From the NCBI GenBank assembly GCA_013387215.1, contig WARW01000002.1, forward strand, positions 3,659-67,658: a stretch of DNA of 64,000 nt, given 5' to 3'. Source of the DNA: Patescibacteria group bacterium. Lineage in GTDB: Bacteria > Patescibacteriota > Microgenomatia > UBA12405. Shown one piece after another: positions 19,259-62,624 of the stretch (position 1 is its first letter; the number at the start of each line of letters is the position of its first letter). The notes under the pieces are model-generated. The model was given only the letters and a program-made list of their open reading frames with translations. It was not told the origin of the DNA and made no database searches. Both the position numbers and the translations under genes were made by a program.

Positions 19259-19282
19259 TTTAGGTGAAGGAGTGTATTTTGA

Positions 19283-19588: not shown

Positions 19589-19695
19589 CTTATAATATTG
19601 ACTTTTGGATATATAAATGCTATAATTTCTTACTTAATTATCAAGCATTAGCTTTAGCGCTTTTTGATTGAAGTTAAGGAACTTTAAAAACCAGG
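19589..19695 (+). repeat. 107-bp perfect direct repeat, copy 1, containing a consensus sigma70-type promoter
   Basis: Identical to 20208..20314. TTGACT at 19598-19603, 17-nt spacer, TATAAT at 19621-19626. The remaining ~63 nt is the first part of the 5' leader. Confidence 0.85.
19598..19626 (+). promoter_or_regulatory. sigma70-like promoter (TTGACT-N17-TATAAT), copy 1
   Basis: Near-perfect -35/-10 hexamers with optimal 17-nt spacing. Confidence 0.55.
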
Positions 19696-19778
19696 GAATA
19701 TAATTTGTGTCGAAAATTGGGAATAATTTGTTTATCCCTAGCTTTCGGTACAAACCGAAAATAATATAAAAAGGATGA

Positions 19779-25373: not shown

Positions 25374-27953
25374 TTGGTCGAATATTTGAGGAAAATGTCA
25401 AAATTTAGTTTATCTTTAGGTAAAAAGTTAGTATATAAATTGTATAAAAAGAGAGATGGATTGGTCCAAATCCCTTTAATAATTGGATTAGTGGTAATGG
25501 CTGTGGCTTTGCCGTTAGTAACAAAATTGACTCAACAGAACACTGAAAATAGAAGTAAAGCGTATGATGGATGTTCCGGTGCACCGCAACAAGCTTGTCA
25601 GTATATGAGTAACTGCACATGGAATGGAAGTAGTTGCACTTCCATAAAAACTTGTGCTTCTTGCAATGGAAATACGAGGTGTAGTGGAGATGTGGTTACT
25701 GTTTGTAATTGTGATGGTAATTGGGTTGGTAATACTCCCTGTGCCAGCGGTACTCATTGTGATAGTTCAGGTACTCATTGTGTAGCCTCAGCTCCAGCAG
25801 CAACTGCAACCCCAAGGCCTAGTGATTGCCGTACTTCAGGATGTCCATCAGGACAGACTTGTACAAGTGATGTCGGAATTTGGGACTGTGTTCCTAATCC
25901 AACTGCAACACCAAGACCTGCAAGCACTGGTGATTGTAGGACAAGCGGTTGTGCTAGGGGAACATGTACAAATATAAATTATATGGCTGGCCGAGAAGGA
26001 TCTCCGGCTGTTTATGTTTGCGTTACACCAACTCCCGTTCCTCCAACAGCAACTCCAAGACCTTATAATTGTCCTTCTAGGTGTAGTAGCAATAAAGGTT
26101 GTGCTACTGTAACTTATCAAAGTACTGATTCTGCCTGTAATAACGTTATTAGTGGAACACAAAACTACACTCCAAATTGTTCCTGCGGTCCTGTCTCTGG
26201 TGGTGATAATTCTATTTGTCAGCAAACCGGTTGTAAAAAACCAAATGGTGAGTCGTGTTCAACAGGTTCTGATTGTGCAAGTGCCATATGTTTTTCTGGT
26301 AAGTGTTCAGCTGCTGATTGTAGCGGTGGTTATGGAAACAAGCCTAATTCTTGCTCTTGTACTTATAGTTTCGAATGTGATTCAGGTAATTGTGTTAGCG
26401 GAAAATGTGTTGCTTCTGGTTCTTCAAATCCAACTTCAATACCAACTCAAGCTACCCAACACTATACGGTTTATAAAAATGGTTCTTGCCAGACTTCAGC
26501 TAATGCATATGTCAGTTTGACAGCATGTAATAATGATCCGCCAGTAAATAATTGTTACTCAAGCATGGCGGCTTGTAATAGTGCACATCCAGCAACTCCA
26601 ACCCAACACTATACGGTTTATAAAAATGGTTCATGCCAAACTTCTATAAATGAATACACAAGTTTGACAGCATGTAATAATGATCCGCCAGTAAATAATT
26701 GTTACTCAAGCATGGCGGCTTGTAATAGTGCACATCCAGTTGCTTCAGTACCAACATATACATGTGAAACAAACGGCGATCATTGTTATACCACCCAAGT
26801 TAATGGAAGCATTCCAACTTCCTGTTTAACCTACACTAATACATATAAACAATTGTATGGAAGCGGTTCTGGTACTTGTGCTAGTGGACTTTGCTGTAAG
26901 ACACCTGTTGCTTGTACATGTTCAAGCGGCTACTCAACTTCAGTAACTAGCTGTCCATCAGGATCCACTTTAGATACGACAAATTCTCTAAGTTGTGGAT
27001 CTGGAGTTAAATGCGGTAAGTGTATCACTGCAACTTCTACTACTGATCCTGAATGTGTTGGTCATGCTAACAGCACAGGATTTTGTTCAGGAACAACTTA
27101 TTTAAGATGCGAAGCAGGAAAAGTAGCTTACACTTTGGCTAATGCTGCAGCTTGTCCAGTAACTCCAACTGATGCTTGTAATAATTATGGAAGCAGTATT
27201 CCAACTTGTATGAGCCAGTCCAATTGTACTTGGAATGGAACTGCCTGTGTAACTAAGCCAGTGTGCGACAAACTATGCGGCAGCAATAAATATGGCGACA
27301 TTGTTTGTAGTGGAAATGCAGTTAAGATTTGTCAATGTGATGGAACTTGGAGCAGCACAGTTCCATGTGCCAGCGGATTAGTTTGTGACAGTACGGCAAC
27401 TAAATGTGTAGCTCCGGCAACTGCTGACCCTGGTATCACTTTTTCTAATTTTAATGTAGTGGCTAATAGTTCAACATCCGTGAGAGTGACTGGCAGTATG
27501 ACAGCAACAAATGGCGGATTATTACAAATGTATTGGTTTAAAGTAGACGGTAATGACATTCAAAAGTTAACTTTGCAAAACCCTGATGGAAATGGCGGTT
27601 TTGTGGGAAGAACTTCATATGATTTCACCAATATTTCCGTAAATAATTTAAGTACTGGAAATCATAATGTTGCAGTTTGTGGAACTGTAAAATCTACTGA
27701 TGGCAGTAAGGAAGTGAATGCTTGTACTGATGTAAAAGCTGTAAGTTTAGTAAATCCTCCAACTGCAGCACCAGGAAGATGCGATGTTTGTTCAACATTT
27801 GCTACATCAAGAAATAATGGAGATTTTGATTGTAATGGAACTTCGAACTTAACAGACTTCTCAGTATGGAAAGATCTGTATTTTAATTGTTCAGGAGTAG
27901 TTTCAACTAATGATTTTTCCATATGGAAGGAAAAATATCTTATTAATAAATAA
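25374..27953 (+). CDS. large Cys-rich modular secreted/surface protein with PT-rich linkers, internal tandem repeats, a C-terminal beta-sandwich-like domain and a dockerin-like tail
   Basis: 859 aa. N-terminal TM/signal segment (IPLIIGLVVMAVALPLV). Two ~65-aa Cys-rich modules (CxYMSNCTWNGSxCT...C.CDG.W....PCASG..CDS....CVA) near the N- and C-terminus. PTATPRP linkers. 2 x 49-aa tandem repeat. C-terminal GDFDCNGTSNLTDFSVWK ... DFSIWK resembles paired dockerin Ca-binding loops and helices. Confidence 0.55.
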   Translation: MVEYLRKMSKFSLSLGKKLVYKLYKKRDGLVQIPLIIGLVVMAVALPLVTKLTQQNTENRSKAYDGCSGAPQQACQYMSNCTWNGSSCTSIKTCASCNGNTRCSGDVVTVCNCDGNWVGNTPCASGTHCDSSGTHCVASAPAATATPRPSDCRTSGCPSGQTCTSDVGIWDCVPNPTATPRPASTGDCRTSGCARGTCTNINYMAGREGSPAVYVCVTPTPVPPTATPRPYNCPSRCSSNKGCATVTYQSTDSACNNVISGTQNYTPNCSCGPVSGGDNSICQQTGCKKPNGESCSTGSDCASAICFSGKCSAADCSGGYGNKPNSCSCTYSFECDSGNCVSGKCVASGSSNPTSIPTQATQHYTVYKNGSCQTSANAYVSLTACNNDPPVNNCYSSMAACNSAHPATPTQHYTVYKNGSCQTSINEYTSLTACNNDPPVNNCYSSMAACNSAHPVASVPTYTCETNGDHCYTTQVNGSIPTSCLTYTNTYKQLYGSGSGTCASGLCCKTPVACTCSSGYSTSVTSCPSGSTLDTTNSLSCGSGVKCGKCITATSTTDPECVGHANSTGFCSGTTYLRCEAGKVAYTLANAAACPVTPTDACNNYGSSIPTCMSQSNCTWNGTACVTKPVCDKLCGSNKYGDIVCSGNAVKICQCDGTWSSTVPCASGLVCDSTATKCVAPATADPGITFSNFNVVANSSTSVRVTGSMTATNGGLLQMYWFKVDGNDIQKLTLQNPDGNGGFVGRTSYDFTNISVNNLSTGNHNVAVCGTVKSTDGSKEVNACTDVKAVSLVNPPTAAPGRCDVCSTFATSRNNGDFDCNGTSNLTDFSVWKDLYFNCSGVVSTNDFSIWKEKYLINK
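26457..26750 (+). repeat. 2 x 147-bp tandem DNA repeat inside the CDS (encodes QHYTVYKNGSCQTS...MAACNSAHP modules)
   Basis: Copy 1 starts ~26457, copy 2 at 26604. The 3' ~77 nt of each copy is identical. Confidence 0.8.
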
Positions 27954-27957
27954 TTAA

Positions 27958-29166
27958 ATGTTCAACAGCAATAACATGAAAAAAATAAATTACACCGCCG
28001 TATTCTGGGTACTGACAAGTATGGCACTAATAGGTGGTTTAGCATTGGCAAGCCAGAGCCAAGATACGAGAAGGGGAGCGGCATTTTCAGCAGGCAGGTT
28101 AATGCTTTTACCAAACGATAAAATCAGCTTTACTGTTGGTCAATCCCAAAACGTTCAATTATGGGTAAATTCAGGGAATGCATCGGCTAATGTTGATGCT
28201 ATTAGAACCAATATCTGTTTTAATAAGAACTTTCTTAATTTAAATGATCCGGTTGTGGAAAATAATATTAAACAAGATCCAGCTTTTGATACTGTGATCG
28301 CAACTTTAAAAGATGGAAACACTCAATGTTTAGATTTATCAATATTATCAGTATCTAAGAAAGCATCAAAAAATGGATTATTTAAGATTGCTGATATCAC
28401 TTTTAAGGGTGTAGGAACAGGATCTGGTCCAATTGATATTATTAAAGATAAAACTGAAATTTCAGGTGACAATGCCGGTAGTTTAGATAAAACAATTAGT
28501 ATTGATTCAGTTACCGGAACTACTTTTGAAGTTACTCCTCAAACTTCAGTAGCAGTACCAACTACACCGCCACCAGCCGGAACACCACTTTTAAGTTTTA
28601 GATTTGCTTATGCGGGCGTGAAGGCAAATGCAGAGTGTTCTATTGGAGCAAAATGGCCAGTAAAGATTATGGTTAGGGGAAATGGAAAAATTTCAAAAGC
28701 TTATACTGCAATTCCAACTTTGGATGGAACAAATTCTCGAGGAGAGGCTGTTTATAAAGTTACAAATTTGGCTTTAACTGATTTCGATCAAAAAAGTGGT
28801 TTGGCTGTTTTTTTGAAAGGACCAGAACACGCTCAGATGAAATATGGAGTTAATGCACAGGCTAGTAACTACACAAAAGCAGATGGAGAAATAACTATTA
28901 CCGCTGATGCATCTACAACTCCAATTTTGGATTTTACTAATTATCCAATAATGCCAGGTGATGTTCGAGGTTCAGCAAGCGGTGGCCAAGATGGAATAAT
29001 AAATGTAGTCGATTTTAGTTATATTAAACAAGCAGTGTCGGCCAGATCTACTGTTCCAGCTGGTGGTGGTTTGGATGCTGACTTAAACGGAGATTGTATG
29101 GCAAATACCGGCGATGTTCAGTTATTTAAAAATTCCCTTATTGAGAAGCAGGATCAATTGTATTAA
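27958..29166 (+). CDS. secreted protein with an N-terminal cohesin-like domain and a C-terminal dockerin-like module
   Basis: Signal/TM (VFWVLTSMALIGGLALA). Cohesin-like hallmarks (TVGQSQNVQLWVNS..., ...GLFKIADITFKGVGTGSGPIDII). C-terminus QDGIINVVDFSYIKQ ... DLNGDCMANTGDVQLFKN fits the D-x-N-x-D-G-x-x-N-x-x-D Ca-loop pattern twice. Confidence 0.45.
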   Translation: MFNSNNMKKINYTAVFWVLTSMALIGGLALASQSQDTRRGAAFSAGRLMLLPNDKISFTVGQSQNVQLWVNSGNASANVDAIRTNICFNKNFLNLNDPVVENNIKQDPAFDTVIATLKDGNTQCLDLSILSVSKKASKNGLFKIADITFKGVGTGSGPIDIIKDKTEISGDNAGSLDKTISIDSVTGTTFEVTPQTSVAVPTTPPPAGTPLLSFRFAYAGVKANAECSIGAKWPVKIMVRGNGKISKAYTAIPTLDGTNSRGEAVYKVTNLALTDFDQKSGLAVFLKGPEHAQMKYGVNAQASNYTKADGEITITADASTTPILDFTNYPIMPGDVRGSASGGQDGIINVVDFSYIKQAVSARSTVPAGGGLDADLNGDCMANTGDVQLFKNSLIEKQDQLY

Positions 29167-29184: not shown

Positions 29185-29811
29185 ATGAAAGACAATGAAA
29201 TTTTAAAATTATTTATCCCGCTTGTTGCAGTAGTGGTAATTTTTGAAAGTGTTTTGTTAGTTTCTAAATTAACCAATAAAACTCCAAGCGTGCCGAGAAC
29301 TGTAAATAATGTAAGTGTAAATGAGGCTGGAAGTTCGGCCCAAGTTTCTGAAAATAAACCTGTGGCTCTAGATTTACTTTTCGGAACAAAAACTAAGGAA
29401 ATGAAAGTTGGTCAAAGTTATGCAGTTGAAGTGGATATGCTTGGAAAAGATAATTATTCTTTTGATGGTGCAGATTTGTATGTTAAATACGATCCAAGTG
29501 CTTTTAATGTTAGTAATTTAAGTTTTGATAGCAAAATACCAAAACCAACATTTAGTAAAGTTAGCCAACAGAAGGGAATGGTAGTTGCTAATTATTTATT
29601 CCCATCTCAAAATGGTTACAGAATTGCGAAAAATGAATTTGCTTCAGTAATGAAATTTGACGTAACTCCCAAGAAGCTTGGAAATTTCGATTTTGAAATT
29701 ACTACTGGTAATCAAGACAAAGAATCTGCTACCATGTTTATAGAAAGTGTTACGAGTCAGGCTCTACCTTTCTCCAGTAATAAATTAAATGTTAATGTTT
29801 TGAATAAATGA
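29185..29811 (+). CDS. membrane-anchored cohesin-like domain protein
   Basis: N-terminal TM (LFIPLVAVVVIFESVLLV). VGQSYAVEVDMLGKDNYSFDGADLYVKYDPSAFNVSNL matches the cohesin consensus (vGdtvtVpVsl...adf.lkYDPsvLev). TGA stop overlaps the next ATG. Confidence 0.45.
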   Translation: MKDNEILKLFIPLVAVVVIFESVLLVSKLTNKTPSVPRTVNNVSVNEAGSSAQVSENKPVALDLLFGTKTKEMKVGQSYAVEVDMLGKDNYSFDGADLYVKYDPSAFNVSNLSFDSKIPKPTFSKVSQQKGMVVANYLFPSQNGYRIAKNEFASVMKFDVTPKKLGNFDFEITTGNQDKESATMFIESVTSQALPFSSNKLNVNVLNK

Positions 29812-30509
29812 GAAAGTCAAGTCTTTTTATAAGCATATTTTTTCTTGGAGCATTTTTAGTATTAGCTAAAGGCAGTAAAGCTACTTTTGCTGCTCCACAC
29901 TTAACATTAACTCCTAGTACTGGAACTTATAATGTCAATGATACTTTTACAGCAACTGTTGGAGTCGATTCAGATACTGAAGGTTCTAATGCTGTTGATG
30001 TGTGGGCAACTTTTGATGCAACAAAATTAGATGTCGTTTCAATAGTTAAAGCTGCTGTGCCAGCATTTAATTTTGATATGACTCCTCATTTTGACAATAC
30101 TACGGGTAAATTTGATTTTTCATGTTCTCCAAGCGATATGAGCAATTTGAGCATTAAACCAATAAAAGGGGATTTGGCTGTAATTACTTTTAAAGCCAAA
30201 GTGGCTGGAAATGCTCCTGTGAATTTTACTTGTCAACAAGGAGTAACAATTGATTCAAATATTTTTAATGCTACTGCTTCTGATGTAATTAGCTGTCCCG
30301 CAAACCAAAGCGGATCTTTCACGATTGGTGCTGCAACAACTACAACTGGAACAACAAATGCTCCTGCAGCAACAACAACAACAACAATTGCGGCCACAAC
30401 TGCTACATCATCTGAGTTGCCAAAAACTGGTAGTCTTAGTACTACAATTGGTTTAGCTACTTTCGGATTGGTGAGTGTTCTAGGCGCATTTCTTCTGAGA
30501 TTTCTATGA
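29808..30509 (+). CDS. cohesin-like domain protein with a C-terminal LPXTG sortase cell-wall sorting signal
   Basis: Signal peptide (LFISIFFLGAFLVLAKG). Cohesin-like core (VDVWATFDATKLDVVSIV...GDLAVITFKAKVAGNAPVNF). T-rich linker. LPKTG, then hydrophobic stretch SLSTTIGLATFGLVSVLGAFLL, then RFL tail. TGA stop overlaps the next ATG. Confidence 0.55.
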   Translation: MRKSSLFISIFFLGAFLVLAKGSKATFAAPHLTLTPSTGTYNVNDTFTATVGVDSDTEGSNAVDVWATFDATKLDVVSIVKAAVPAFNFDMTPHFDNTTGKFDFSCSPSDMSNLSIKPIKGDLAVITFKAKVAGNAPVNFTCQQGVTIDSNIFNATASDVISCPANQSGSFTIGAATTTTGTTNAPAATTTTTIAATTATSSELPKTGSLSTTIGLATFGLVSVLGAFLLRFL

Positions 30510-34161: not shown

Positions 34162-36996
34162 ATGGATAGAATAATGCCAGATGCTGATATTGAAAAATAT
34201 GACGGAATAGATGGCGTGGTCAAAAGCTTGGTAAAAGTTCAATCAGAAAATATTGACCTAGAATCACAGCCAACTTTGTGTGACGTTTTAAGAAGAATTT
34301 TTATTAGAGAGGGAATAAAAGATGTAGAGATAAATAATAAAAATATTGATCTTATTATTGATAAATTATCGAATTTTGATGAGTCAGTTTCTAAAAAGGA
34401 AAATGAATTGTTGAAAAAAGCAGCTAATAAAAAAGAAGAATTGGAAACAAAAACAGAGGGTTCGGTGGTTCCAGTAGCTGTAATCAGAAAATTGGTGGGG
34501 GAATATCAATTATATTTAGATAATGAAGTATCAGAAGAAGAAGCATTGAAACTAGTGGAAAAAAGGAATAAAAATGTTGTCTCTAAAAAAAATGTTGAAA
34601 CCTTAATTAAACGGCAAAGAGAGATGTATTGGGAGAATTTAAAAGCGATTCAGAATTTTAAAGCAGAAAGTGAAGGTCGACCTAAATCGGAAGATGTGAT
34701 TTTAATGAAGGCTGACGAAAAGAAAGATGAAAATGCCAGTAATCTTGAGAAAAAGATGGCGATGACTTTGGCAGAAGAGCAATTGGTGTTAGAAGAAACG
34801 ATTGAGGGTCAGATTAGTGGTGTAGAAGCAGAAGAATTGAGTCGTAAGATTTTTGAAAAAGTGGTGATTCCTGGAATCTTTAATGATAATGGAACTTTAG
34901 ACGTTAAAAAAATATTAGAGTTTGCCAAACAAACTGATGGGTTAGATATTAATTCTGAAAGACAAGAATTATTAGTGGAAACTGTAAGTAAAGTAAATAA
35001 TTCTTTAGATATAAATATTAAAATCGATCAGGAAGCTGATAGGGTGATGGAAATAGTAATGGGTACTTTTAAAAGTGATGAAACACTTGAGGAAGTTTTT
35101 GAAAAACAAGAAGAAGCAATTCGAGTTTCTGTGGTAAGAATGGTGGAAAGAACTATAGATGATAGAACCTTAAATACTAATACTGAGGTTGAAAGAACAA
35201 TAAGCGAAATAAAAAGTTTATACAAAGAAAGTACTGGTTTGGATTTAGATCCAAGTTTAGATCTTAAAATGGAAACAGCGATCAAAGGGGCAGCAGTTGA
35301 GGTGGAAAATTGGATTGGCTCTAGAGCAGAGGAAATAAATCGTTATCGAACTGAAAAATTAAGCAACACTATTTATACAAAAATTATTTATCAGAATCCG
35401 GATATCAGCCAGGCAAAAAAAACGGCAGTCAAAGAATATGGAGATTTGGTATCAAATATTTATTATTACAAATCGGAAATAGAAAGGCATAAAAATGAGG
35501 CAGTTGATAATGTATTATCAAAAGGATTTTCGCCAGAAAAAACTGCTAATGCTTACAGTGATTTGAGAGGTTTATATTCTATTTTAAAAATGAATCCCGG
35601 TGATTTTAATGGCCTTATTTATAAATATCGGCAATTAAAATTTGAGTTGAAAGGAATTGAACTGCCGTATGAAATTAAGGAATTAAAATCTTTTGAAGGT
35701 TTAATGTCTTTAGCTTCAGAAGTCCCTGAAGTAAAAAACTTAATTAATTTCACCCAAAAATATATTAAAGTTTACGATACAGTTAATGCAATATCGGGCG
35801 GGTTTTTGGAAAAATTGGGTCTTAAACAATTGGGGATGTCGGCATTAGATTCGGTTGGTGGTCAAGCGATGAGTAAATTTGTGACCAGTTCTTTGGAAGT
35901 ATTTGCTGAGCAGGGTGTAAAGAAAGGAGCATGGGCGATTTTGAAAGGAATTATAAGCGGGGGAGTTGAGGTTGGAGCTGGGGCAGCAGAAGGAGCCGCT
36001 GGGGCAGCCGCGACTGGAGGTGTGGCAGGGGCAGTGGCAGCATTTCAAGCGATTCCAGTGGTCGGACAGGTAATTTTAATTGTGGTTGTGGTTGTGGTGG
36101 CACTTATAAAAATAATTAAACCAGTAATTAAAATTGCTACTTCAGTTTTAAAAGCAATGGGAGTTGATTTTGATAAAATGAAGGCGTTTTTTCAGGAATA
36201 CTTAGGGGGATTTTTTGGGGGAATACTTAGTTGGGGGGTAAAAACAGGAATATTAATAATTAGTATTCCAGCGGCTTTGTCTATGGTTTCAATATCAGCA
36301 GTTGTCGGGCCAGTGGTGATATTTTTAATGATTGGACTTTTTGCTTATACAACTTTAAACGGAAACTTAGTGTCTTCTTTAGTGCCACCAGTAAGAATGG
36401 GCGGTGGACAAAATCAATCAACTGCACCAGGTGGTGTACTGGTTCCAGGAGAAAATAATGATTTTACAGGGGAGTGTAGCGTGGGACAATATGTTCAATT
36501 AACACGACAATGCGATCCAGCTTGGGCTAATATGAGTTTGCCCGGGGGTTGCACAATTTGTTATGCAGGGTGCGGACCAACAAGTGTATCGATGATTTTG
36601 CAACGTCAAAGTCCCGATAATACGGTCGTTAATTTATTAAAAGATCCGATATACAGCAGTGTTGATTGTAATGGGTCAGGCATGGATCAACATGAAAAAA
36701 TATTAAGAAAGTATTTGGGCGATGATGCTATAAGTTATGGTTCATCATCACTTTGTACTCCTAAAGATATTGCCAGTTGGATATGTGATGGAAAAATAGT
36801 TTTGGTAGCGGCTCAGTTTTTTAATTCTAAAGGCACTGGCGGTCATTTTGTTTTAGGGGTGGCGGTTGATGGGGGACAGATAGTAACGGCTGATCCATAT
36901 TATGGAACTAGAAGTCCTTTTGATGGAGATACTAGCTATGGACATGTTGATTTAAGTCAAGATATTTGGTGTTTATTAGTTGATCCAAAAAAATAA
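34162..36996 (+). CDS. large membrane protein: ~620-aa acidic/coiled-coil cytoplasmic N-terminal region, Gly/Ala-rich segment, ~4 TM helices, and a C-terminal extracytoplasmic peptidase-C39-like (papain-fold) domain
   Basis: 944 aa. TM segments (VILIVVVVVVALIKIIKPVI, ILIISIPAALSMVSISAVVGPVVIFLMIGLFAY). The C-terminal domain has CYAGCGPTSVSMIL (catalytic Cys context as in Peptidase_C39_2 N.CGPTS) plus a downstream GGHFVLG..D (His/Asp). Confidence 0.5.
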   Translation: MDRIMPDADIEKYDGIDGVVKSLVKVQSENIDLESQPTLCDVLRRIFIREGIKDVEINNKNIDLIIDKLSNFDESVSKKENELLKKAANKKEELETKTEGSVVPVAVIRKLVGEYQLYLDNEVSEEEALKLVEKRNKNVVSKKNVETLIKRQREMYWENLKAIQNFKAESEGRPKSEDVILMKADEKKDENASNLEKKMAMTLAEEQLVLEETIEGQISGVEAEELSRKIFEKVVIPGIFNDNGTLDVKKILEFAKQTDGLDINSERQELLVETVSKVNNSLDINIKIDQEADRVMEIVMGTFKSDETLEEVFEKQEEAIRVSVVRMVERTIDDRTLNTNTEVERTISEIKSLYKESTGLDLDPSLDLKMETAIKGAAVEVENWIGSRAEEINRYRTEKLSNTIYTKIIYQNPDISQAKKTAVKEYGDLVSNIYYYKSEIERHKNEAVDNVLSKGFSPEKTANAYSDLRGLYSILKMNPGDFNGLIYKYRQLKFELKGIELPYEIKELKSFEGLMSLASEVPEVKNLINFTQKYIKVYDTVNAISGGFLEKLGLKQLGMSALDSVGGQAMSKFVTSSLEVFAEQGVKKGAWAILKGIISGGVEVGAGAAEGAAGAAATGGVAGAVAAFQAIPVVGQVILIVVVVVVALIKIIKPVIKIATSVLKAMGVDFDKMKAFFQEYLGGFFGGILSWGVKTGILIISIPAALSMVSISAVVGPVVIFLMIGLFAYTTLNGNLVSSLVPPVRMGGGQNQSTAPGGVLVPGENNDFTGECSVGQYVQLTRQCDPAWANMSLPGGCTICYAGCGPTSVSMILQRQSPDNTVVNLLKDPIYSSVDCNGSGMDQHEKILRKYLGDDAISYGSSSLCTPKDIASWICDGKIVLVAAQFFNSKGTGGHFVLGVAVDGGQIVTADPYYGTRSPFDGDTSYGHVDLSQDIWCLLVDPKK

Positions 36997-40723: not shown

Positions 40724-41233
40724 ATGCCTAGTCGTTGTCTTAATAGAGTAATGTTAATCGGTAACTTAACTCGTGATCCTGAGTTAAGATACACCCCAGC
40801 CGGAATGGCAGTCGCATCTTTCGGTTTAGCTACTAATCGTGTTTGGGTGACCAAACAAGGTGAGCGAAAAGAAGATGCTCAATTCCACAGAATTGTTGCC
40901 TGGAATAAATTAGCTGAATTGTGTGCCCAATTATTATCAAAAGGCCGAAGAATTTATGTTGATGGTAGAATTCAATACCGAGAATTCAACGATCAAGATA
41001 ACAACAAAAAACAAATTGCTGAAATAGTTATCGACGATATGATTATTTTAGATAACAAAGGTGCTGGTTCTGACCACCCAATGGCAAATGATTTTGCTGA
41101 ATCTGATATTGCACCTCAAGGCGGAGCCGATATGGGTCAAGGAATGATCGATGATATCGTTATCCCAGATGATGTTGTTGATGCTGAACCACAAGTTAAA
41201 GATAAAAAGGAAGACGAAGAAATTCCATTTTAG
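40724..41233 (+). CDS. ssb: single-stranded DNA-binding protein
   Basis: OB fold (LNRVMLIGNLTRDPELRYTPAGMAVASFGLATNR) and an acidic C-terminal tail ending EEIPF. Confidence 0.85.
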   Translation: MPSRCLNRVMLIGNLTRDPELRYTPAGMAVASFGLATNRVWVTKQGERKEDAQFHRIVAWNKLAELCAQLLSKGRRIYVDGRIQYREFNDQDNNKKQIAEIVIDDMIILDNKGAGSDHPMANDFAESDIAPQGGADMGQGMIDDIVIPDDVVDAEPQVKDKKEDEEIPF

Positions 41234-42326: not shown

Positions 42327-43532
42327 ATGAAAATGAAGAACATCAGAAATTTAACCCTATCTTTGGCTATATTAGCAATTGTTTCCATCATTAGTTTTAA
42401 GATGGGCCAGAATAGTTCTTTGGTTGGAGCAGGCGAGAGCGGTCAATTGAATTTGAATTTAATGTGGCAAGTGAAAAACAAATTGTCCCAAATGTATTTA
42501 GACAAGAGCAAAATCGATGATAGAAAAATGGAATATGGAGCGATACAAGGCATGGTAGCATCGCTAGATGATCCGTACACGGTATTTTTGCCTCCTGATC
42601 AAAATAAGAGCTCTAATGAAGATTTAGCGGGTCAGTTTGGAGGGGTGGGAATTTCTTTAGGCTATAATAAAGATAATATTTTGGCGGTTATGGCACCGGT
42701 GGCTGGAAGCCCAGCTGAAAAAGCGGGAATTAAAGCAGGTGATTTGATTTTGAAAATAACTGATAAAGCAAATAATGTTGATAAAGATACTAATGGAATG
42801 GCACTTGATGAGGCGGTTAAATTAATCAGAGGTAAAGTTGGGACAGATGTTACTTTGAAAATATTCAGAGATGGCAGTAAGGATACAAAAGACATAACTC
42901 TAAAAAGAGATAATATCGTAGTTCCAAGTGTGACTTTGAATTGGAAAGAACAGAACGGTAAAAAAGTGGCTTGGGTCCAATTATCAAAGTTTACGGATGA
43001 ATTATACAAACAATGGCCAGAAACTATCGCTAAAATCAAAAAAGAAGGTGGCAATAATTATGGCGGCATAGTTTTGGATTTACGTAATAATCCAGGTGGA
43101 TTTTTACAGGCTAGTGTAATGGTGGGTTCAGATTTTGTTTCTGACGGTGTAATCGTTAAACAACAAAATTATGATGGTACAACTCAAACATATAACGTTG
43201 ATTCGGCTAGAAGACAACTTTTGAATGATCCATTGGTGGTTTTAGTAAACGGCGGGTCAGCTTCAGCTGCAGAAATTTTAGCAGGTGCATTGAAAGATCA
43301 TGGCCGAGCTAAACTTGTGGGAGTTAAAACTTTTGGAAAAGGAACTGTCCAACAACCAGAAGATTTTAGTGACGGCAGCGGACTTCATATTACAATCGCT
43401 AAATGGTTATTGCCAGACGGAAGCAATATCCATAAAGTCGGAATTAATCCTGATGTAGAGATTAAAGAGGATTCAAATTCTAAGGATGATGTCCAATTAA
43501 ATAAGGCAATCGATGTCTTACTTAATAAATAA
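42327..43532 (+). CDS. ctpA: carboxyl-terminal processing protease (S41, tail-specific protease family) with PDZ domain
   Basis: PDZ (GGVGISLGY...GSPAEKAGIKAGDLILKI). S41 motifs LDLRNNPGG and GGSASAAEILAGALKDHGRAKLVG.TFGKG (Ser/Lys dyad context). Confidence 0.8.
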   Translation: MKMKNIRNLTLSLAILAIVSIISFKMGQNSSLVGAGESGQLNLNLMWQVKNKLSQMYLDKSKIDDRKMEYGAIQGMVASLDDPYTVFLPPDQNKSSNEDLAGQFGGVGISLGYNKDNILAVMAPVAGSPAEKAGIKAGDLILKITDKANNVDKDTNGMALDEAVKLIRGKVGTDVTLKIFRDGSKDTKDITLKRDNIVVPSVTLNWKEQNGKKVAWVQLSKFTDELYKQWPETIAKIKKEGGNNYGGIVLDLRNNPGGFLQASVMVGSDFVSDGVIVKQQNYDGTTQTYNVDSARRQLLNDPLVVLVNGGSASAAEILAGALKDHGRAKLVGVKTFGKGTVQQPEDFSDGSGLHITIAKWLLPDGSNIHKVGINPDVEIKEDSNSKDDVQLNKAIDVLLNK

Positions 43533-43596
43533 TTCAGCTAATTTTCAGCTTGTTAAGTTTTAATAAAGCAATCAATTATTATTTATAATAATTAAT

Positions 43597-44787
43597 ATGG
43601 ATATAAAAACATTCAGAGGATTATTACTTGGTTTATTTATTGGTTTGATGGCTGCAGGAATGGTGGTAACCGGGGCAATAATTGATAAAACTGTTGGGTT
43701 TCCATTTTTAAATAAAATAATTGGTGATAAAAACAATTCAACCGTCAGCACGACTTTAAAACAAGAAACTTTAGATCAAGAATCAGTGGTAACAAGAGTG
43801 GTGGAACAGGCAACCCCAAGTGTAGTGACAGTATCGATTAGCAAGGTGAGCATGCCAACCAATGTTGATCCGTTTGGTTTAGATTTCTTAAATCAATTTT
43901 TTAATATTCCTAAAAATGATCAAAATGCTGAACCTCAAAAAATAGAGCAAGATATCGGCAGCGGTTTTATTATCAGTAATGATGGATTGATTGTGACAAA
44001 TAAACACGTGGTGGCTGATACAAGCGCAAAATATAAAGTGGTAATTGGCAAAGATCAGGTGGTGGATGTGGATCAAATTTATCGAGACCCAGTGAATGAT
44101 TTAGCCATATTAAAGGTAAATAAAACTGGCTTAAGTTCGGTGAATTTAGGTGATTCAGATAAGTTAAAAGTTGGTCAAACTGTGATTGCAATCGGAACTG
44201 CTTTGGGAGAATTCAGATCAACTGTAACGAGTGGAGTTATCTCTGGTTTAGGAAGAGGAATTACTGCTGGTTCTTCGATGGGAGGTTCAGAAAGACTTGA
44301 TAATGTGATCCAGACTGATGCAGCAATTAATCCAGGAAATTCTGGAGGTCCATTATTTGATTCCAGCGGCAAGGTGATCGGAGTAAATGTGGCAGTGTCT
44401 CAGGGAGGACAGGGAATTGGTTTTGCCCTGCCAATTAATTTAGTTAAACAATCAATTGATAATTTCAAAACTACCGGTGAATTTGACAGACCATATTTGG
44501 GGGTGGCTTATAAAATGATTTCTAAACAAGCCGCTCTTTTAAATGAAGTTCCAGCTGGTGCTTATGTACAAGAGGTGGCTGCTGGAAGTCCGGCTGAAAA
44601 AGCTGGAATTAAAACAGGCGATATTGTGACTGAAATTGATGGTAAAAAATTAAGCGATCAAGGTGCTGATACTTCTTTGGCCACAATCGTGAATACCAAA
44701 AAAATAGGGGATACGATCAGTTTGAAAATTTACCGAGACAATAAAGACCAAACAGTTCAAGTGAAATTAGAGAAGAGACAAAATTAA
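43597..44787 (+). CDS. htrA: HtrA/DegP-family serine protease (S1C) with one PDZ domain
   Basis: His context GSGFIISNDGLIVTNKHVV, Asp context DLAILKV, Ser context NPGNSGGPLFD, a C-terminal PDZ (GSPAEKAGIKTGDIVTEIDGKK) and an N-terminal TM anchor. Confidence 0.8.
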   Translation: MDIKTFRGLLLGLFIGLMAAGMVVTGAIIDKTVGFPFLNKIIGDKNNSTVSTTLKQETLDQESVVTRVVEQATPSVVTVSISKVSMPTNVDPFGLDFLNQFFNIPKNDQNAEPQKIEQDIGSGFIISNDGLIVTNKHVVADTSAKYKVVIGKDQVVDVDQIYRDPVNDLAILKVNKTGLSSVNLGDSDKLKVGQTVIAIGTALGEFRSTVTSGVISGLGRGITAGSSMGGSERLDNVIQTDAAINPGNSGGPLFDSSGKVIGVNVAVSQGGQGIGFALPINLVKQSIDNFKTTGEFDRPYLGVAYKMISKQAALLNEVPAGAYVQEVAAGSPAEKAGIKTGDIVTEIDGKKLSDQGADTSLATIVNTKKIGDTISLKIYRDNKDQTVQVKLEKRQN

Positions 44788-45296
44788 ACTGTTTCGATAT
44801 CTTTTATTTTTAATTCTTTGACATGAATATCAGCACGTTGGTGATCTTTCGCTAGCCAACCTAAGCTTAATAGTTCTATAGAACCGTCTTCTGGTTCATA
44901 ATCACTAAAGAAAACTTCTTCTTCTAATTCAGAAAAATCGCCAAATAATAATTTTTTGACTAGTTGATGATCGTTTTTGTTAACTAATTTATACTTTTTA
45001 TTTTGATAAACAATTGTTTTTTTCTCTCCAATATCCTGATCTTTAATATCTTTTATATGTCCGATTATGTGGTCACTATACATTAATGTTTTTTCTTTTA
45101 ATAAAACTAAAAGAAAAGATTTATCATCAAACAATATTTTTAGATATTCATCATTTCCCAGGTTTTTAGTGTGATATCGAGCCATACTCAATATTCGTTT
45201 GCTTTTACCATAAATTTTAAAAAATATTTTTTGATTTTTTATATCATCTAAAAAATTTTTAAAATTAAGGATGGCTGGCATAACTAATTTTATCAA
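44784..45296 (-). CDS. hypothetical protein (170 aa)
   Basis: ORF only. Confidence 0.35.
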   Translation of the reverse strand: MIKLVMPAILNFKNFLDDIKNQKIFFKIYGKSKRILSMARYHTKNLGNDEYLKILFDDKSFLLVLLKEKTLMYSDHIIGHIKDIKDQDIGEKKTIVYQNKKYKLVNKNDHQLVKKLLFGDFSELEEEVFFSDYEPEDGSIELLSLGWLAKDHQRADIHVKELKIKDIETV

Positions 45297-45305
45297 AAGA
45301 AAGGA

Positions 45306-46046
45306 TTATTTATTTAAACTTTCCTGCTTTTCTTTGTCTTTTTCGTCTAACACTGTTAATTCAAGGAATAGGTCATCAAGTTCTCCCTGCATCATTTTAT
45401 CGAGGTTGTTGAAAGATTTGTCGATGCGATGATCTTTGACTTGGTTTCGAGGGTAATTGTAGGTTCTGATTTTGTCTGCACGAGTTGATTGGCTGATATT
45501 AGACCGACCAGCAGAGATTTCACTCATTCTTTTTTCTTCTTCAATTTGCCAAAGCTTGTTTTTTAGTAAATTGATAGCAATTTCCCGGTTTTGCTGTTGA
45601 GAACGTTCAGTGCGGACATCAAACATTAATCCAGTTGGTTTATGAACTAAATGAACAGCTGTAGAAACTTTATTGACGTTTTGGCCACCATTACCGCCAG
45701 CCCGACTAGCAGTGATGACGACATCTTCCATTCTGAAATTAACTTCTTTGGAGTCAATTTGAGGGAGAATGGCAATGGACGCAGTTGATGTTTGAATACG
45801 ACCGCGTTTTTCGGTTATTGGAATTCTTTGGACACGATGAGTGCCAGCTTCATATTTAAGCTGGTTATAAGCATCATAACCGGAGATCTGGATAACTTCA
45901 TCGTCAATTTGACTGACTTTCCAGCCAACTTTGTTGGCATAACGAACATACATGTTTTGAAGATCCTGAGCCCATATTGTAGCTTCCTGGCCGCCTGGAC
46001 CTGGATGGAATTCCATAATAGCGATATTAGGATTTAGAGTAGGCAT
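45306..46046 (-). CDS. class I peptide chain release factor, RF1-like, lacking N-terminal domain 1
   Basis: 246 aa. Begins at the RF domain-2 boundary ([13 protein letters not shown] vs RF1 LEVRAGTGGDEAA). RF1-type codon-recognition tripeptide region [17 protein letters not shown] (RF1 has P-A/V-T; RF2 has SPF). Catalytic GGQ ([20 protein letters not shown]). Only 76 nt of non-coding sequence separate the start from rpmE, so there is no room for domain 1. Confidence 0.65.
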
Positions 46047-46122
46047 AATTTTATTTTATATATTTTTTAAACAAAAAACCGCCAAACATAATAATAATTA
46101 CTGTATAGCGGTTTTAGAATTG

Positions 46123-46371
46123 CTACTTTGAAGCTTTTACTTTAGCAGTTTTCTTAGCTGCATTGGCTTTACCAGCGGCCATTTTTTCATTGAATTTGTC
46201 GATTCTACCTTTAATGTCAACGAATTTTTGTTGACCAGTAAAGAATGGATGACACTTTGAACAAACGTCGACGTCAATTTTTTCTACAGTAGATCCAGTA
46301 GTAAAACTGTTGCCGCAGGCACAGGTAACTTTGCATTGATCAAAATATTGAGGATGAATTCCTTGTTTCAT
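46123..46371 (-). CDS. rpmE: 50S ribosomal protein L31 with a Lys-rich C-terminal tail
   Basis: MKQGIHPQY...CACGNSF...[10 protein letters not shown] matches the L31 signature including the Zn-binding Cys pairs. Confidence 0.85.
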
Positions 46372-46411
46372 AGGTAATTATTATATCAGATATAATGTAT
46401 TTTTAAAGTAT

Positions 46412-48139
46412 TTATAGTTCGAAATAGGATTTTTTAATACTAGTATTAGGATCAAGGCCCATTTCTTGAAAAATCGAGTCTAAATCTTTGTCTTTGGTTG
46501 ATCTTATTTCTACAAAATTGCCTAAAAATCGGGTTTCATTATTAACTTTGGTTGATACATTATCGATTGAAAAAACTGTACCTTTATAAGTATAAATGGC
46601 GCGACTTTTTTGGATCATTTTAGTTTCCCGGCCGTAAAAATTAATGAATGCATCTTTAGCACCCTCATCAATTTCAAATTCCAGTTTTGGTCTTTCCCGG
46701 AAAGTTGAGGTTTCATTTTTGGGACCTTTGTAAGTGAGAATATAAAATCCATTTTCTTGTCTGATTCTTAATATTTCATCAGTATCTTTGAGGTCTTTTC
46801 CAAATGGTGTGTAATAGGAGTCGGTTTGATTAATATGGCAAAGAAGTTCGGCTTTTCTTAGAACAGCGGGGGATAAGGTCTGCAGAAACTTTACCTGGTT
46901 TTCGTTAACATTGGATCTTTGGGCTTCAACGGATGGATTGTATTCGTTTTCAACAATAATATCGGCGTTGATAATATTTTTCTGAATGTGCTTTTCGTGC
47001 ATCGGTTCAACTACTTGGGCAAAGTATTTGACAATATCTGATGGTTTTTGGGAAGTTCTATCAATGTCTCTTAATAATCTTCTAATGATTCGGCCATGAG
47101 TTCCGATATCGACAAATATTTTGTAGTCAGATTGATCTTTTAAATTATTATTTAAGGCAAATAAACCTTCAATAATAATTAGGTTTTTAGGATCGATTGG
47201 CTCATAACCAGTTCTTTCACCTGTTTTGAAACTATAAATTGGTTTTTGAATAGTTTTGCCTTGTTTAAGTAGAGATAGGTGATCTTTGAGTAATTCGAGG
47301 TCAACTGCTTCTGGTTGGTCCCAATTAATAAGGTTGCCTTTTTTGGCTTCTTTTCCGATATAGGCGGCTCCACGATAGTAATCATCCATAGAAATTAATA
47401 AAGCGTTTTCACTAAATTTTTTGCTGATTTTGTGGGCAACTTGGCTGGTTTTTCCAGAGGCTGAACCGCCAGCGATAGCAATAATTGAGGTCTTATTAGG
47501 ATTTGAATCTAAGATTTCTTGAATTTCTTCAATTGACTTTTCAACACCTTCATCGAGAGTAAAACGTGGAGCTTCTCGAAAGTGTTCGGGAGAGGGAAGG
47601 CCATATAGCACCAAGGCTTGATTTTTGAATCTTTTATCAAGGGTAACTTCACGTCCAAACCAAGATGGAGCAATAAAGTTTTTCTTAAGTTCCGGAGTTT
47701 TAAATTCAACTTCAGTCATGACTAACCCTTCATGTTTTCCGTGGAAGATATCAAGTTCAATTAGATAGTTACCATCGGGAATTAAATATCGAGTTTTTTC
47801 GATAATTCCAGGAATAGTTCTTTGCTGCCACAATTCCTCAAATTCTTTTTCAGAAATTGGTTTTTCTTGTTCCAAACGATCTTCGCCGCTGCCTGCTTTT
47901 TTAGTGTAAAAATATTCAACAGAACCGTCGAGATGAACTTGTTTTCTGAGTCTTTCTTCTGATTTTCCGGGATCAATGGTTAAGTATCCTTGAGTGATTT
48001 GAAGAGTGTCACACTTAGATAAGTCATGGGGAACATCATTAAGGTCGATCAGATACTTCTTTTCGTCCTCATGGTGTACTTTCTCTTTGTTAATAATAAA
48101 CTCCTGAGACCCAGGTTGTAATGATTCTGCTTTATTCAT
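46412..48139 (-). CDS. tri-domain protein: CYTH (triphosphate tunnel metalloenzyme) - uridine/cytidine-kinase-like P-loop kinase - CYTH
   Basis: 575 aa. N-terminal CYTH (EKKYLI...TEVEFKT ExExK-type). Central PRK/Udk-like P-loop IIAIAGGSASGKTS plus DDYY and IIEG motifs. C-terminal second CYTH-like domain (KLEFEIDEG...RFLGNFVEIRS). Confidence 0.6.
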   Translation of the reverse strand: MNKAESLQPGSQEFIINKEKVHHEDEKKYLIDLNDVPHDLSKCDTLQITQGYLTIDPGKSEERLRKQVHLDGSVEYFYTKKAGSGEDRLEQEKPISEKEFEELWQQRTIPGIIEKTRYLIPDGNYLIELDIFHGKHEGLVMTEVEFKTPELKKNFIAPSWFGREVTLDKRFKNQALVLYGLPSPEHFREAPRFTLDEGVEKSIEEIQEILDSNPNKTSIIAIAGGSASGKTSQVAHKISKKFSENALLISMDDYYRGAAYIGKEAKKGNLINWDQPEAVDLELLKDHLSLLKQGKTIQKPIYSFKTGERTGYEPIDPKNLIIIEGLFALNNNLKDQSDYKIFVDIGTHGRIIRRLLRDIDRTSQKPSDIVKYFAQVVEPMHEKHIQKNIINADIIVENEYNPSVEAQRSNVNENQVKFLQTLSPAVLRKAELLCHINQTDSYYTPFGKDLKDTDEILRIRQENGFYILTYKGPKNETSTFRERPKLEFEIDEGAKDAFINFYGRETKMIQKSRAIYTYKGTVFSIDNVSTKVNNETRFLGNFVEIRSTKDKDLDSIFQEMGLDPNTSIKKSYFEL

Positions 48140-55221: not shown

Positions 55222-55896
55222 ATGAATTTGGCAATAATTAGAGTTTTGGGCATCATTTTATTTTTATATTTGATGTGGCGTAATTTGAAAGATAATTATC
55301 ATGAGAATGATTTGATTTCTTATTCTTGGGTTGCTCTTTTGAGTTTTTTTGCCGGCGGAAGATTGGTGTATGGATTAATTAATTGGGGAGTATGGAATAC
55401 TAATTGGACTGACTGGTTTGCCGTTTGGAATAAACCGGGTTTAAGTTTGATTGGTGCTTACTTAGCTGTTTTTGGAGTCACTTATTGGATATGCAGAAAT
55501 GAAGGCTGGAAATTGTGGTCATTTGCTGAAGATAGTTTAAATGTTTTTTTGGTGTTTTTTATCTTTTTGATTTTAGACGAATTTGTTAGGTCGGGATTTG
55601 ATTTGAGAACAGGCGTAAATATTTTAGTGGCAATAATTGCCTTTGCTGCCTCACTTTTCATTAAAACAAAATACCGATCATTCAGCTGGTACCGTAGTGG
55701 AAAAAAAGGTTTTGGATTTTTATTTATAAATTCTTTGATTTGTTTTATGCTCGCAGGTGTTTCTTTTTGGTTCAAAGACAGTATAATCTATACAGGATTG
55801 TACCTGTTAGGCGGGTTGATTTCTTTGGTTGGATTGTGTATCTTGGGAGAAGTCTTTGATGAATTAATGGTTAATTTAAAAAGGAATAAAAAATGA
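55222..55896 (+). CDS. polytopic membrane protein, possibly a divergent prolipoprotein diacylglyceryl transferase (Lgt-like)
   Basis: 224 aa, ~6 TM. FAGGRLVYGLINWGVW resembles the Lgt G-x-RLG-Y-x-x-x motif. Context with lspA two genes downstream. Weak. Confidence 0.35.
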   Translation: MNLAIIRVLGIILFLYLMWRNLKDNYHENDLISYSWVALLSFFAGGRLVYGLINWGVWNTNWTDWFAVWNKPGLSLIGAYLAVFGVTYWICRNEGWKLWSFAEDSLNVFLVFFIFLILDEFVRSGFDLRTGVNILVAIIAFAASLFIKTKYRSFSWYRSGKKGFGFLFINSLICFMLAGVSFWFKDSIIYTGLYLLGGLISLVGLCILGEVFDELMVNLKRNKK

Positions 55897-61667: not shown

Positions 61668-62624
61668 TTGCTAAAATGGATTATGGAAAACGATTTGAAT
61701 GTGGCGGTACGCCGATTTTTGGAACATTTGGAAATCGAGAAAAACTGTTCAAAATTAACAGTGAGAAATTACGAACATTATTTAAATGTTTTAATAGATT
61801 TTTTGAGTTTAGGAAATTCTGAAGTTAAACCAAAACTTGAAGATTTGACCGCGGACAAAATAAGAAGTTTCAGATTATATTTATCAAGACAAAAAGGTAC
61901 GAATGGTGAAATGAAGTTAGTGACTCAGGGGTATTACGTGATCGCCATTCGTTCATTTTTAAAATGGCTAATAAAAAACGACGTTCAAGTAATGCAACCA
62001 GAAAAGTTGGATGTTCCAAAGACCAAAGATCATTCATTAAAGTTTTTGGACAGTCAGCAGATTGATAGACTTCTAAACCAGCCTTTACTTTCAGACAAGA
62101 ACGGGCTTCGTGATAAGGTGATTTTGGAATTGTTGTTTTCCACAGGCCTACGTGTGTCGGAGTTGGTGTCTTTGAATAGAAATCAAATTAATTTGCACAC
62201 CCGAGAATTTGGAGTAATTGGAAAAGGTGGCCGGTCGAGATTGGTTTTTATTTCTACCACAGCAGCTGGTTATTTGGATCGTTATTTGAAAGCCCGTTCC
62301 GATCAATATAAACCACTTTTTATTCGAACTCTAAAATCTACAGATATAATTTCGGATGATGAAAAAGTGAGACTGACTTCCCGCTCGATTCAAAGATTAG
62401 TCAAAAGATATGTTCATCAAGCGAGGTTGCCAGTTGAAGCGACTCCACATACCCTTAGACATTCGATGGCTACTGACCTTTTGCGGTCTGGTGCCGATTT
62501 AAGATCGGTGCAGGAAATTTTGGGTCATAAAAATATTGCCACGACTCAAATATATACTCACGTTACCGATGCCCGCTTAAGAGAAGTTCATGAGAAGTTC
62601 CATAGTGGTAATAAAAAGACATGA
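61668..62624 (+). CDS. tyrosine site-specific recombinase (XerC/XerD-like)
   Basis: N-terminal SAM-like core-binding domain. Catalytic region with R (GLRVSEL), HTLRHSMAT (H-x-x-R), GHKNIATTQIYTHV (catalytic Tyr). Confidence 0.8.
   Translation: MLKWIMENDLNVAVRRFLEHLEIEKNCSKLTVRNYEHYLNVLIDFLSLGNSEVKPKLEDLTADKIRSFRLYLSRQKGTNGEMKLVTQGYYVIAIRSFLKWLIKNDVQVMQPEKLDVPKTKDHSLKFLDSQQIDRLLNQPLLSDKNGLRDKVILELLFSTGLRVSELVSLNRNQINLHTREFGVIGKGGRSRLVFISTTAAGYLDRYLKARSDQYKPLFIRTLKSTDIISDDEKVRLTSRSIQRLVKRYVHQARLPVEATPHTLRHSMATDLLRSGADLRSVQEILGHKNIATTQIYTHVTDARLREVHEKFHSGNKKT

Follow-up and report, generated by a model that had tools for sequence, protein, structure and literature searches.

Can a bacterium terminate translation at UAA and UAG with a release factor 1 (RF1) that lacks its entire first domain, and would such a factor be the ordinary prfA product of its lineage or an extra copy with a role of its own? 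This question is raised by a gene in a 64,000-nucleotide stretch of DNA from a Patescibacteria group bacterium (contig WARW01000002.1, positions 3,659 to 67,658; hereafter "the window"), where an open reading frame (ORF) at 45306..46046 on the minus strand, with an ATG start and a TAA stop, encodes a 246-aa class I release factor (RF) that consists of domains 2, 3 and 4 only. Domain 1, which comprises approximately 105 aa and helices alpha-1 to alpha-4, bridges ribosomal protein L11 and RF3 in E. coli and is kept by almost all other bacteria. A first-pass annotation of the window, made from the letters alone, had left two alternatives standing, namely that the lineage uses a minimal RF1 or that the gene is a paralogue with a full-length prfA elsewhere. 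We favor the former, as the truncation is conserved across the lineage and the gene sits in the prfA slot, and we think it likely that this is the housekeeping prfA of Candidatus Shapirobacteria (Microgenomates, within the Candidate Phyla Radiation (CPR), or Patescibacteria) and that it encodes a functional minimal UAA/UAG release factor with neither L11 docking nor RF3 recruitment.

The short protein is co-linear with RF1 from domain 2 onward

At a G+C content of approximately 35%, the window has its best protein matches in entries labelled Candidatus Shapirobacteria or Patescibacteria group, and in the genes it carries and their order it agrees with an 823-kb JGI contig and with many further contigs from CPR. 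The first-pass annotation had placed the start of the ORF at the domain 1/2 boundary, with co-linearity from there to the C-terminus, and alignments to PDB, Pfam and NCBIfam entries agree. Searched against PDB with phmmer, residues 7-240 align with residues 105-346 of Thermus thermophilus RF1 and residues 9-229 with residues 111-342 of E. coli RF1, so the protein begins at that boundary; the E-values were 2.6e-63 for RF1, 1.2e-40 for RF2, and 4e-14 and 2e-7 for PrfH chains. The Pfam PCRF profile is matched by residues 8-91 over positions 101-194 of 194 only, and the RF-1 profile (PF00472) is complete on residues 100-207 (8.8e-31, profile positions 3-116 of 116). Ranking by NCBIfam models across RF1, RF2 and PrfH also placed the protein with RF1: prfA scored 268-270 bits (model positions 106/114 to 344/356 of 361), above prfB at 195 bits and far above prfH at 65 bits (cut-off 166.65; residues 99-198, the GGQ domain, only), and the ArfB model gave 42 bits on residues 100-135 only. 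At 268 bits the protein stays under the prfA equivalog cut-off of 400-423 bits (423.25), only because a third of the model is unmatched.

Evaluating the motifs that read the stop codon and release the peptide, we found the PIT tripeptide and the intact GGQ where they had been reported, with the 17-residue string quoted from the decoding region at residues 71-87 (Table 1). Across a 60-sequence alignment of homologues (A1), the invariant set is G18, G19, E21, Q73, P76, T78, T86 and G120-G121-Q122. We take G18, G19 and E21 to be the equivalents of the U1-reading Gly116/Glu119 of T. thermophilus RF1, and, following the RF1-ribosome structures, we assume that the alpha-5 tip, Q73, P76, T78 and T86 recognize U1, A2 and the third base and that GGQ is catalytic. 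The middle residue of the PxT tripeptide varies among 120 family members (V 46, I 37, E 17, A 9, L 8, T 2, S 1), as it does in RF1 generally, and the SPF tripeptide of RF2 is not present in the 246-aa protein, where PIT stands at the equivalent position. In the RIHTS motif of RF1 the His stacks on the second stop-codon base; we considered its replacement by Gln as a sign of altered specificity and rejected this, since His and Gln alternate in the family (Q in 93/120, H in 27/120 members) and Gln also occurs in approximately 7 full-length RF1 representatives. From this motif set, UAA/UAG codon specificity and catalytic activity are predicted for the 246-aa RF1. A second, accidental GGQ falls in the alpha-5 tip itself (PGPGGQEA, residues 18-20, 45987-45995 on the minus strand) in most close relatives and could mislead motif-based annotation.

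The predicted fold is likewise that of RF1. An AlphaFold2 model built on the 60-sequence alignment reached a mean pLDDT (predicted local distance difference test) of 84 and a pTM (predicted template modeling score) of 0.68, and its best Foldseek matches were the ribosome-bound (open) RF1s of T. thermophilus and E. coli (TM 0.75, approximately 37% identity). Identity to canonical RF1 is 37-42%, and alignment to the PDB structures shows a beta-hairpin of domain 2 that is approximately 10 aa shorter in the 246-aa protein.

The truncation is fixed and under selection across Candidatus Shapirobacteria

The best 120 homologues among 5.8 billion proteins, which come from NCBI, JGI, ENA and Logan assemblies, measure 211-251 aa (median 239), and in 117 of 119 the alpha-5 tip motif is preceded by exactly 15 residues. 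Their common N-terminus, MPT(I/L)NPNIAI(M/L)EF.PGPGG, is also found at 80 metagenome loci, which together with 5 others form our set of related loci (814 kb in total; 86 loci counting the window). Throughout Candidatus Shapirobacteria, the domain-1-less RF1 is the fixed form. Among 1.84 billion cluster representatives searched, only a few short clusters fell near the query, the next matches being full-length RF1s of at most 47% identity.

To the question of whether domain 1 could be hidden upstream, the answer lies in the spacing to rpmE, which precedes the RF gene on the same strand at 77 of the 86 loci (window included), at a distance of -7 to 139 nt. In 77 related loci the frame stays open for at most 33 codons upstream of the RF start, too few for a domain of 105 aa, and no frameshifted remnant of one is present. 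The first-pass annotation had measured the gap in the window exactly, and had rightly called domain 1 absent, not frameshifted. Nei-Gojobori ratios of nonsynonymous to synonymous substitution (dN/dS) against 12 relatives were 0.05-0.14, with dS saturated, and in the same comparison the first 25 codons are likewise under purifying selection; these values and the constrained N-terminus mark a working gene.

The short gene holds the position of full-length prfA

A CPR relative with a full-length factor (L168) carries a 367-aa four-domain RF1 (P0144) in the order rpmE-prfA-prmC, with a prmC-like product of 268 aa that has an NPPY motif, followed by convergent htrA, rplI and ctpA and then by S18, SSB and S6. 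The window runs hisS, an ORF with uridine-kinase and CYTH domains (udk-CYTH), rpmE, the short RF gene, a 170-aa ORF (orf170), and then convergent htrA and ctpA, with SSB upstream at 40724-41233. Its htrA-ctpA order recurs in relatives L001 and L002, where S18 and S6 stand at corresponding positions, and in L168; loci with full-length prfA share these anchors. Given this common rpmE / htrA-ctpA-S18-SSB-S6 neighborhood, the short gene is the orthologue of housekeeping prfA, in keeping with the rpmE-prfA position that the gene had been assigned at the outset. At six loci with other RF1 forms, rpmE is again upstream of the RF gene (L003, L004, L005, L166, L167, L168). The prmC that follows prfA and the rplI/L9 that lies between htrA and ctpA in L168 (11091-13837) have no counterpart at those places in the window (42327-45296) or the 85 related loci, and tblastn with the two L168 products gave no match in any of them.

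A tblastn search with E. coli RF1, RF2 and their domain 1 (the E. coli RF2 query having been checked against PDB) found no locus but this one within the 64-kb window, and neither a second RF gene nor a domain 1 was found by tblastn in the window plus the 814 kb of related loci; that the short RF1 is the sole RF1 of its genome is strongly suggested. All three stop codons are in use, as the first reading of the window had it: the stop is TAA in 40 of 53 long non-overlapping ORFs, TGA in 7 and TAG in 6, and of 639 ORFs in the related loci TAG ends 105 and TGA 62. Because TAG ends ORFs in the window and in its relatives, RF1 activity is needed, and because TGA stops are used, an RF2 must exist. 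Four of the seven TGA stops are ATGA start/stop overlaps of consecutive genes (11469-11472, 29808-29811, 30506-30509, 55893-55896).

Reduced RF1s recur in other CPR groups

The first-pass annotation had framed the truncation as a matter of one lineage, and in this the truncation stood but its breadth was underestimated, with loss of domain 1 recurring in at least two other CPR groups. Immediately after rpmE lie a 256-aa factor of Candidatus Amesbacteria (P0123, L003) and a 269-aa factor (P0137, L004) whose cluster has another member labelled Patescibacteria group, and the start of a 242-aa factor (P0142, L005) overlaps rpmE. Searching with P0142 brought in another large family with forms of 231-246 aa, whose label is Candidatus Portnoybacteria, on the Parcubacteria side of CPR. 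Among the 120 matches listed, 106 have no more than 18 residues ahead of the alpha-5 tip, and about 12 keep a mini domain 1 of approximately 60 aa, with a core identity of 72-77%. Two Portnoybacteria contigs, each longer than 500 kb, have the RF gene directly against rpmE or overlapping it.

We placed the common core of these proteins in a neighbor-joining (NJ) tree, which is crude and indicative only. The Shapirobacteria clade stands beside two pairs, P0122 (15 residues before the tip) with P0124 (80) and P0123 (29) with P0127 (77), and the full-length P0128 (114 residues before the tip) falls outside this Shapirobacteria/Amesbacteria grouping; P0142, P0137, P0132 and P0125 nest among full-length sequences elsewhere. 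Crude as the tree is, the pattern of a full domain, then a two-helix stump, then nothing appears clear and seems to have been repeated in at least two CPR groups, and the sequences indicate that domain 1 was lost independently in Amesbacteria and Portnoybacteria by way of mini-domain intermediates of approximately 60 aa. The new N-termini converge on the '(P)xDPND' linker of domain 2 (MPTINPN... in Shapirobacteria, MNTNPNN... in Portnoybacteria). The deletion of approximately 10 aa in the domain 2 hairpin accompanies the loss of domain 1 in the Shapirobacteria/Amesbacteria clade and in P0125, not in Portnoybacteria.

Three further sequences came up in these searches. P0132 (332 aa, JGI/ENA), a domain-1-less RF1 from another lineage, has a Ser/Pro/Thr-rich insertion of approximately 85 aa in domain 2 that separates the alpha-5 region from the PxT strand. 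P0121 (477 aa) and P0126 (481 aa) were considered as fused or tandem release factors and rejected, as an exact internal repeat of 100-120 residues marks each as an assembly or gene-call artefact of a full-length RF1. In the Patescibacteria contig of L004, the stretches 3040-5307 and 16043-19696 hold LAGLIDADG homing-endonuclease ORFs, close to the RF locus, and an intein-containing PEP-utilising enzyme (1,217 aa).

A proposed mechanism and the points against it

We propose that the 246-aa protein would act as the tRNA-shaped core of RF1. Its domain 2/4 superdomain would read UAA and UAG in the 30S decoding center through the alpha-5 tip, Q73, P76-x-T78 and T86, and domain 3 would bring the GGQ to the peptidyl-transferase center for peptidyl-tRNA hydrolysis; with domain 1 absent, the factor would bind without docking on L11 and would leave the ribosome spontaneously, without RF3-driven recycling. 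That it works as an RF1 without domain 1 we infer by analogy with E. coli RF1 and RF2 deprived of their N-terminal domain, whose codon specificity and in vitro release were unaffected, with truncated RF1 working in vivo, and which lost the interaction with RF3 and the stimulation of its nucleotide exchange (Mora et al. 2003, as summarized in PMC1586002). Independence from RF3 would fit a long-standing proposal that weaker binding by class I factors is how RF3-less bacteria cope, RF3 being missing from 72 of 191 genomes, including those of Bacillus, Mycobacterium and Mycoplasma (PMC1780047).

Several points weigh against this reading. Bacillus RF2 loci match B. subtilis RF2 from residue 1 or 22, so that domain 1 is kept there. 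Mycoplasma, Mycobacterium and the mitochondrial factor mtRF1a keep it too. Since RF3-less Bacillus, Mycoplasma and Mycobacterium all retain domain 1, the loss of RF3 is at most permissive and cannot alone explain the loss of domain 1, and some RF3-independent role of the domain must also be dispensable. Candidates for what makes it so are slow growth, an altered GTPase-associated center and the deletion in the domain 2 hairpin, any of which might account for the loss being tolerated. Ribosomes of E. coli without L11 were reported to be inactive with RF1 (reviewer comment in PMC1586002), which suggests that the contact between domain 1 and L11 can matter. At the position where RF1 has the His stacking on the second base of the stop codon, the 246-aa protein has Gln, and the RF searches for the lineage cover only the window and the 814 kb of related loci.

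Alternative explanations

The best-surviving alternative, which we nonetheless consider unlikely, is a specialized paralogue, active in rescue or quality control like PrfH or ArfB, in a genome whose canonical full-length prfA lies elsewhere. Domain-1-less RF homologues with special roles do exist (PrfH, PMC1586002; ArfB), and the names given by the NCBI pipeline are merely 'peptide chain release factor-like protein' and 'PCRF domain-containing protein'. The decoding motifs, however, are of RF1 type and not the altered ones of PrfH; neither RtcB nor any other conserved partner accompanies the gene (orf170 occurs at 3 of the 86 loci); and it stands in the exact slot of the full-length prfA of L168. 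Strong purifying selection on the short gene makes a paralogue unlikely as well, the genomes are gene-poor at approximately 0.8 Mb, and the nearest full-length RF1 in the 1.84-billion-protein library, besides its low identity, groups outside the clade.

PrfH, or RFH (TIGR03072), resembles the short RF1 in having no domain 1, keeping the GGQ and measuring approximately 200-230 aa, but its decoding motifs are altered and an rtcB-like gene always precedes it (PMC1586002), whereas the short RF1 has RF1 motifs and rpmE as its neighbor. No RtcB was found among the 53 long ORFs of the window, in the 814 kb of related loci or in the annotated neighborhoods of relatives, and the PrfH model touches the GGQ domain only; judged by motifs and neighbors the short RF1 is not a PrfH, and the distinction drawn in the first-pass annotation holds. 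ArfB (YaeJ), mitochondrial ICT1 and mtRF-R are likewise reduced class I RF relatives that keep the GGQ domain, but these are without the codon-reading domain 2/4 and place a basic C-terminal tail in the empty mRNA channel, whereas the short RF1 keeps the full decoding domain.

A split gene, with domain 1 encoded separately and joining the core in trans, is a less probable account still. Domain 1 is a structurally independent, flexible unit (PMC1586002), which would suit such an arrangement, yet neither the window nor the 814 kb of related loci gave a tblastn match when the queries were domain 1 sequences from nine CPR RF1s, full and reduced, and from E. coli RF1 and RF2. Moreover, sister lineages shorten stepwise, with approximately 115, 78 and 29 and then 15 residues before the alpha-5 tip, which speaks for erosion and not for fission.

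We regard as very improbable, slightly more so than a split gene, that the truncated factor is omnipotent, reading UGA as well in a lineage without RF2. No RF2 of the lineage turned up in the RF2 searches that were made, and the His to Gln change adjoins the stop-codon bases. Scanning the contigs of reference genomes with aligned RF2 sequences from B. subtilis, E. coli and T. thermophilus gave a best 80 loci, ranked by similarity to the first query, that belong to Bacillota and others, with no CPR; the RF2 alignment against viral contigs gave 24 RF2 loci, phage-like or unclassified and none recognisably CPR; and RF2 tblastn against the window and the 85 related loci met only the RF1-type gene. 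This failure to find RF2 reflects the limits of the searches, however, and not absence: the PxT, Q73 and T86 set is that of an RF1-type reader and is invariant, the alternation of His and Gln is seen in ordinary full-length RF1 too, and the TGA frequency is normal for an AT-rich genome. Of these 24 homologues from viral-classified contigs, which are of SPF type, two seem to have a shortened N-terminus (L185 1134-1853 and L187 5001-5696, on IMG/VR contigs of 86 and 110 kb), with ORFs of 272 aa with the alpha-5 tip at residue 36 and of 310 aa with the tip at residue 86; the remainder are full length with very divergent first domains.

Reading the short ORF as a pseudogene remnant, a wrongly called start or an artefact of assembly is effectively refuted. 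Some short RF1 database entries are clearly fragments or assembly duplications (P0121, P0126), and in the NJ tree several of the short representatives group tightly with full-length sequences, but the same gene structure occurs in more than 100 independent assemblies (NCBI, JGI, ENA and Logan), the start lies directly against rpmE, dN/dS is approximately 0.05-0.14 and the fold is predicted with confidence.

Comparison with canonical and engineered RF1

Set beside canonical RF1 (prfA; TIGR00019 / NF001859; T. thermophilus RF1, PDB 4V63; T. maritima RF1, 1RQ0), the short RF1 is alike in its co-linear domains 2-4, PxT, alpha-5 Gly/Glu, Gln and Thr readers, GGQ and rpmE-prfA position. It differs in being a short protein without the whole of domain 1 (alpha-1 to alpha-4), in its shorter hairpin, in the Gln that replaces the RIHTS His and in having no prmC after the gene. 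The engineered E. coli RF1 and RF2 (Mora, Zavialov, Ehrenberg & Buckingham 2003, as summarized in PMC1586002) share the removal of domain 1, but these are laboratory constructs in an RF3-containing organism and reduce fitness, whereas the short RF1 is natural, fixed and selected, and was apparently reached through mini-domain intermediates.

Features of the locus

The motifs of the RF gene and the features around it are collected in Table 1. No Shine-Dalgarno-like sequence is visible in the spacer between rpmE and the RF gene, and no candidate passed a terminator and promoter scan of these 76 nt. A hairpin spotted by eye in the spacer, AACCGC...GCGGTTTTTT, has a 25-nt loop and was set aside, as the scan did not call it. 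Promoter-like sites in the region are not above shuffled expectation, and the site upstream of rpmE, a consensus match only, could be the promoter of an rpmE-RF operon.

Table 1. Coordinates of RF motifs and neighboring features in the window
Feature	Position	Strand	Remarks
Conserved N-terminus MPTLNPN	46026..46046	-	Counterpart of the (P)xDPND linker at the start of domain 2 in full-length RF1
Alpha-5 tip GPGGQEA, residues 16-22	45981..46001	-	G18, G19, E21 invariant in A1
PxT tripeptide 'anticodon' P76-I77-T78 (PIT)	45813..45821	-	Preceded by Q73; Q73, P76, T78 invariant in A1
RIQTS, residues 83-87	45786..45800	-	RF1 'RIHTS' motif with His -> Gln at residue 85; T86 invariant
Catalytic GGQ, residues 120-122	45681..45689	-	Invariant in A1
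rpmE-RF spacer, 76 nt	46047..46122	-	Too short for domain 1 (~105 aa)
rpmE (L31, 82 aa)	46123..46371	-	Pfam Ribosomal_L31 2.7e-30; NCBIfam L31
Promoter-like site TTTAAA, 16 nt, TG-TATAAT (candidate)	46380..46407	-	Upstream of rpmE; 10/12 consensus matches
170-aa ORF (orf170)	44784..45296	-	Directly downstream of RF, between RF gene and htrA; no Pfam/NCBIfam match
htrA-like protease	43597-44787	+	Pfam; convergent on RF gene, synteny anchor
ctpA-like S41 protease	42327-43532	+	Pfam; convergent on RF gene, synteny anchor

In the window, orf170 fills the slot that prmC holds in the full-length-RF1 relative L168; the ORF is also present in L094 and L123. We considered orf170 as a substitute for domain 1 or a remnant of PrmC and rejected both, given that it has no family match, is confined to these three loci and bears no similarity to the PrmC-like gene of L168; on its distribution it appears not to be a conserved partner of the RF. 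On the other side of rpmE, a 575-aa ORF (46412-48139, minus strand) joins an N-terminal region of approximately 200 aa without family match to a uridine-kinase/PRK domain and a C-terminal CYTH domain. This udk-CYTH ORF is inserted between hisS and rpmE, and tblastn found it in none of the 85 related loci, where hisS adjoins rpmE.

Implications and other features of the window

Our search of the full-text literature found no prior description of a domain-1-less RF1 in CPR/Patescibacteria, which is not proof of absence given that most subscription journals lie outside its coverage. The closest published accounts are the paper on PrfH and the work on truncated E. coli factors, and databases hold hundreds of short RF1 sequences under vague names, which could make automated surveys wrongly score such genomes as without RF1.

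Domain 1 is the least understood part of bacterial termination. RF3 is absent from more than a third of surveyed genomes (PMC1780047); genomes of this kind nevertheless keep domain 1, which would there have a role independent of RF3. Were the short factor confirmed as the sole RF1, a core of decoding domain plus GGQ would be sufficient for life, and the short and mini-domain RF1s are ready-made material for kinetic and cryo-EM (cryo-electron microscopy) comparison. A wider possibility, which we raise tentatively and with more doubt than conviction, is that several CPR lineages (Shapirobacteria, Amesbacteria, Portnoybacteria and others) independently cut termination down to a two-module tRNA-shaped factor without L11 stalk contact or RF3, in step with a CPR-specific change in the GTPase-associated center or in termination kinetics. 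That domain 1 is kept in RF3-less Bacillus and lost repeatedly only in CPR would point to such a change. If so, the RF2 of these lineages might share the truncation, and the series of approximately 115, then 60, then 0 residues in two CPR superphyla would amount to a natural deletion series for the role of domain 1 without RF3; the interest would be greater if RF2 is indeed truncated alike and the loss ties to a ribosomal change.

The short RF1 adds a reduction in translation factors to the peculiarities of CPR ribosomes, next to a 152-aa EF-Ts and the absence of rplI and prmC at the L168-equivalent positions. The EF-Ts gene (21975-22433, plus strand) matches positions 1-76 only of the 204-position Pfam EF_TS profile, and Portnoybacteria have EF-Ts of 131-150 aa (L005 8408-8803, L166 8542-8994, L167 8632-9081). 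Ribosomal protein S2 (21035-21952, plus strand; 305 aa) has an N-terminal extension of approximately 86 aa before the Pfam S2 domain, with S2 measuring 231-244 aa in L004, L005, L166 and L167.

Elsewhere in the window, two long ORFs on the plus strand (25374-27953, 859 aa, and 34162-36996, 944 aa) have no Pfam match at E <= 1e-4, and the same is true of the mid-sized ORFs 27958-29166 and 29185-30509. An ATPase (16721-18967, minus strand; 748 aa) shows weak matches to TrwB/VirD4-type coupling proteins and to HerA/DUF87. Adjoining a C-terminal fragment of gyrA at the window edge is a tyrosine recombinase (61668-62624, plus strand; 318 aa) with Phage_integrase and SAM-like N-terminal domains, which is probably XerC/D-like.

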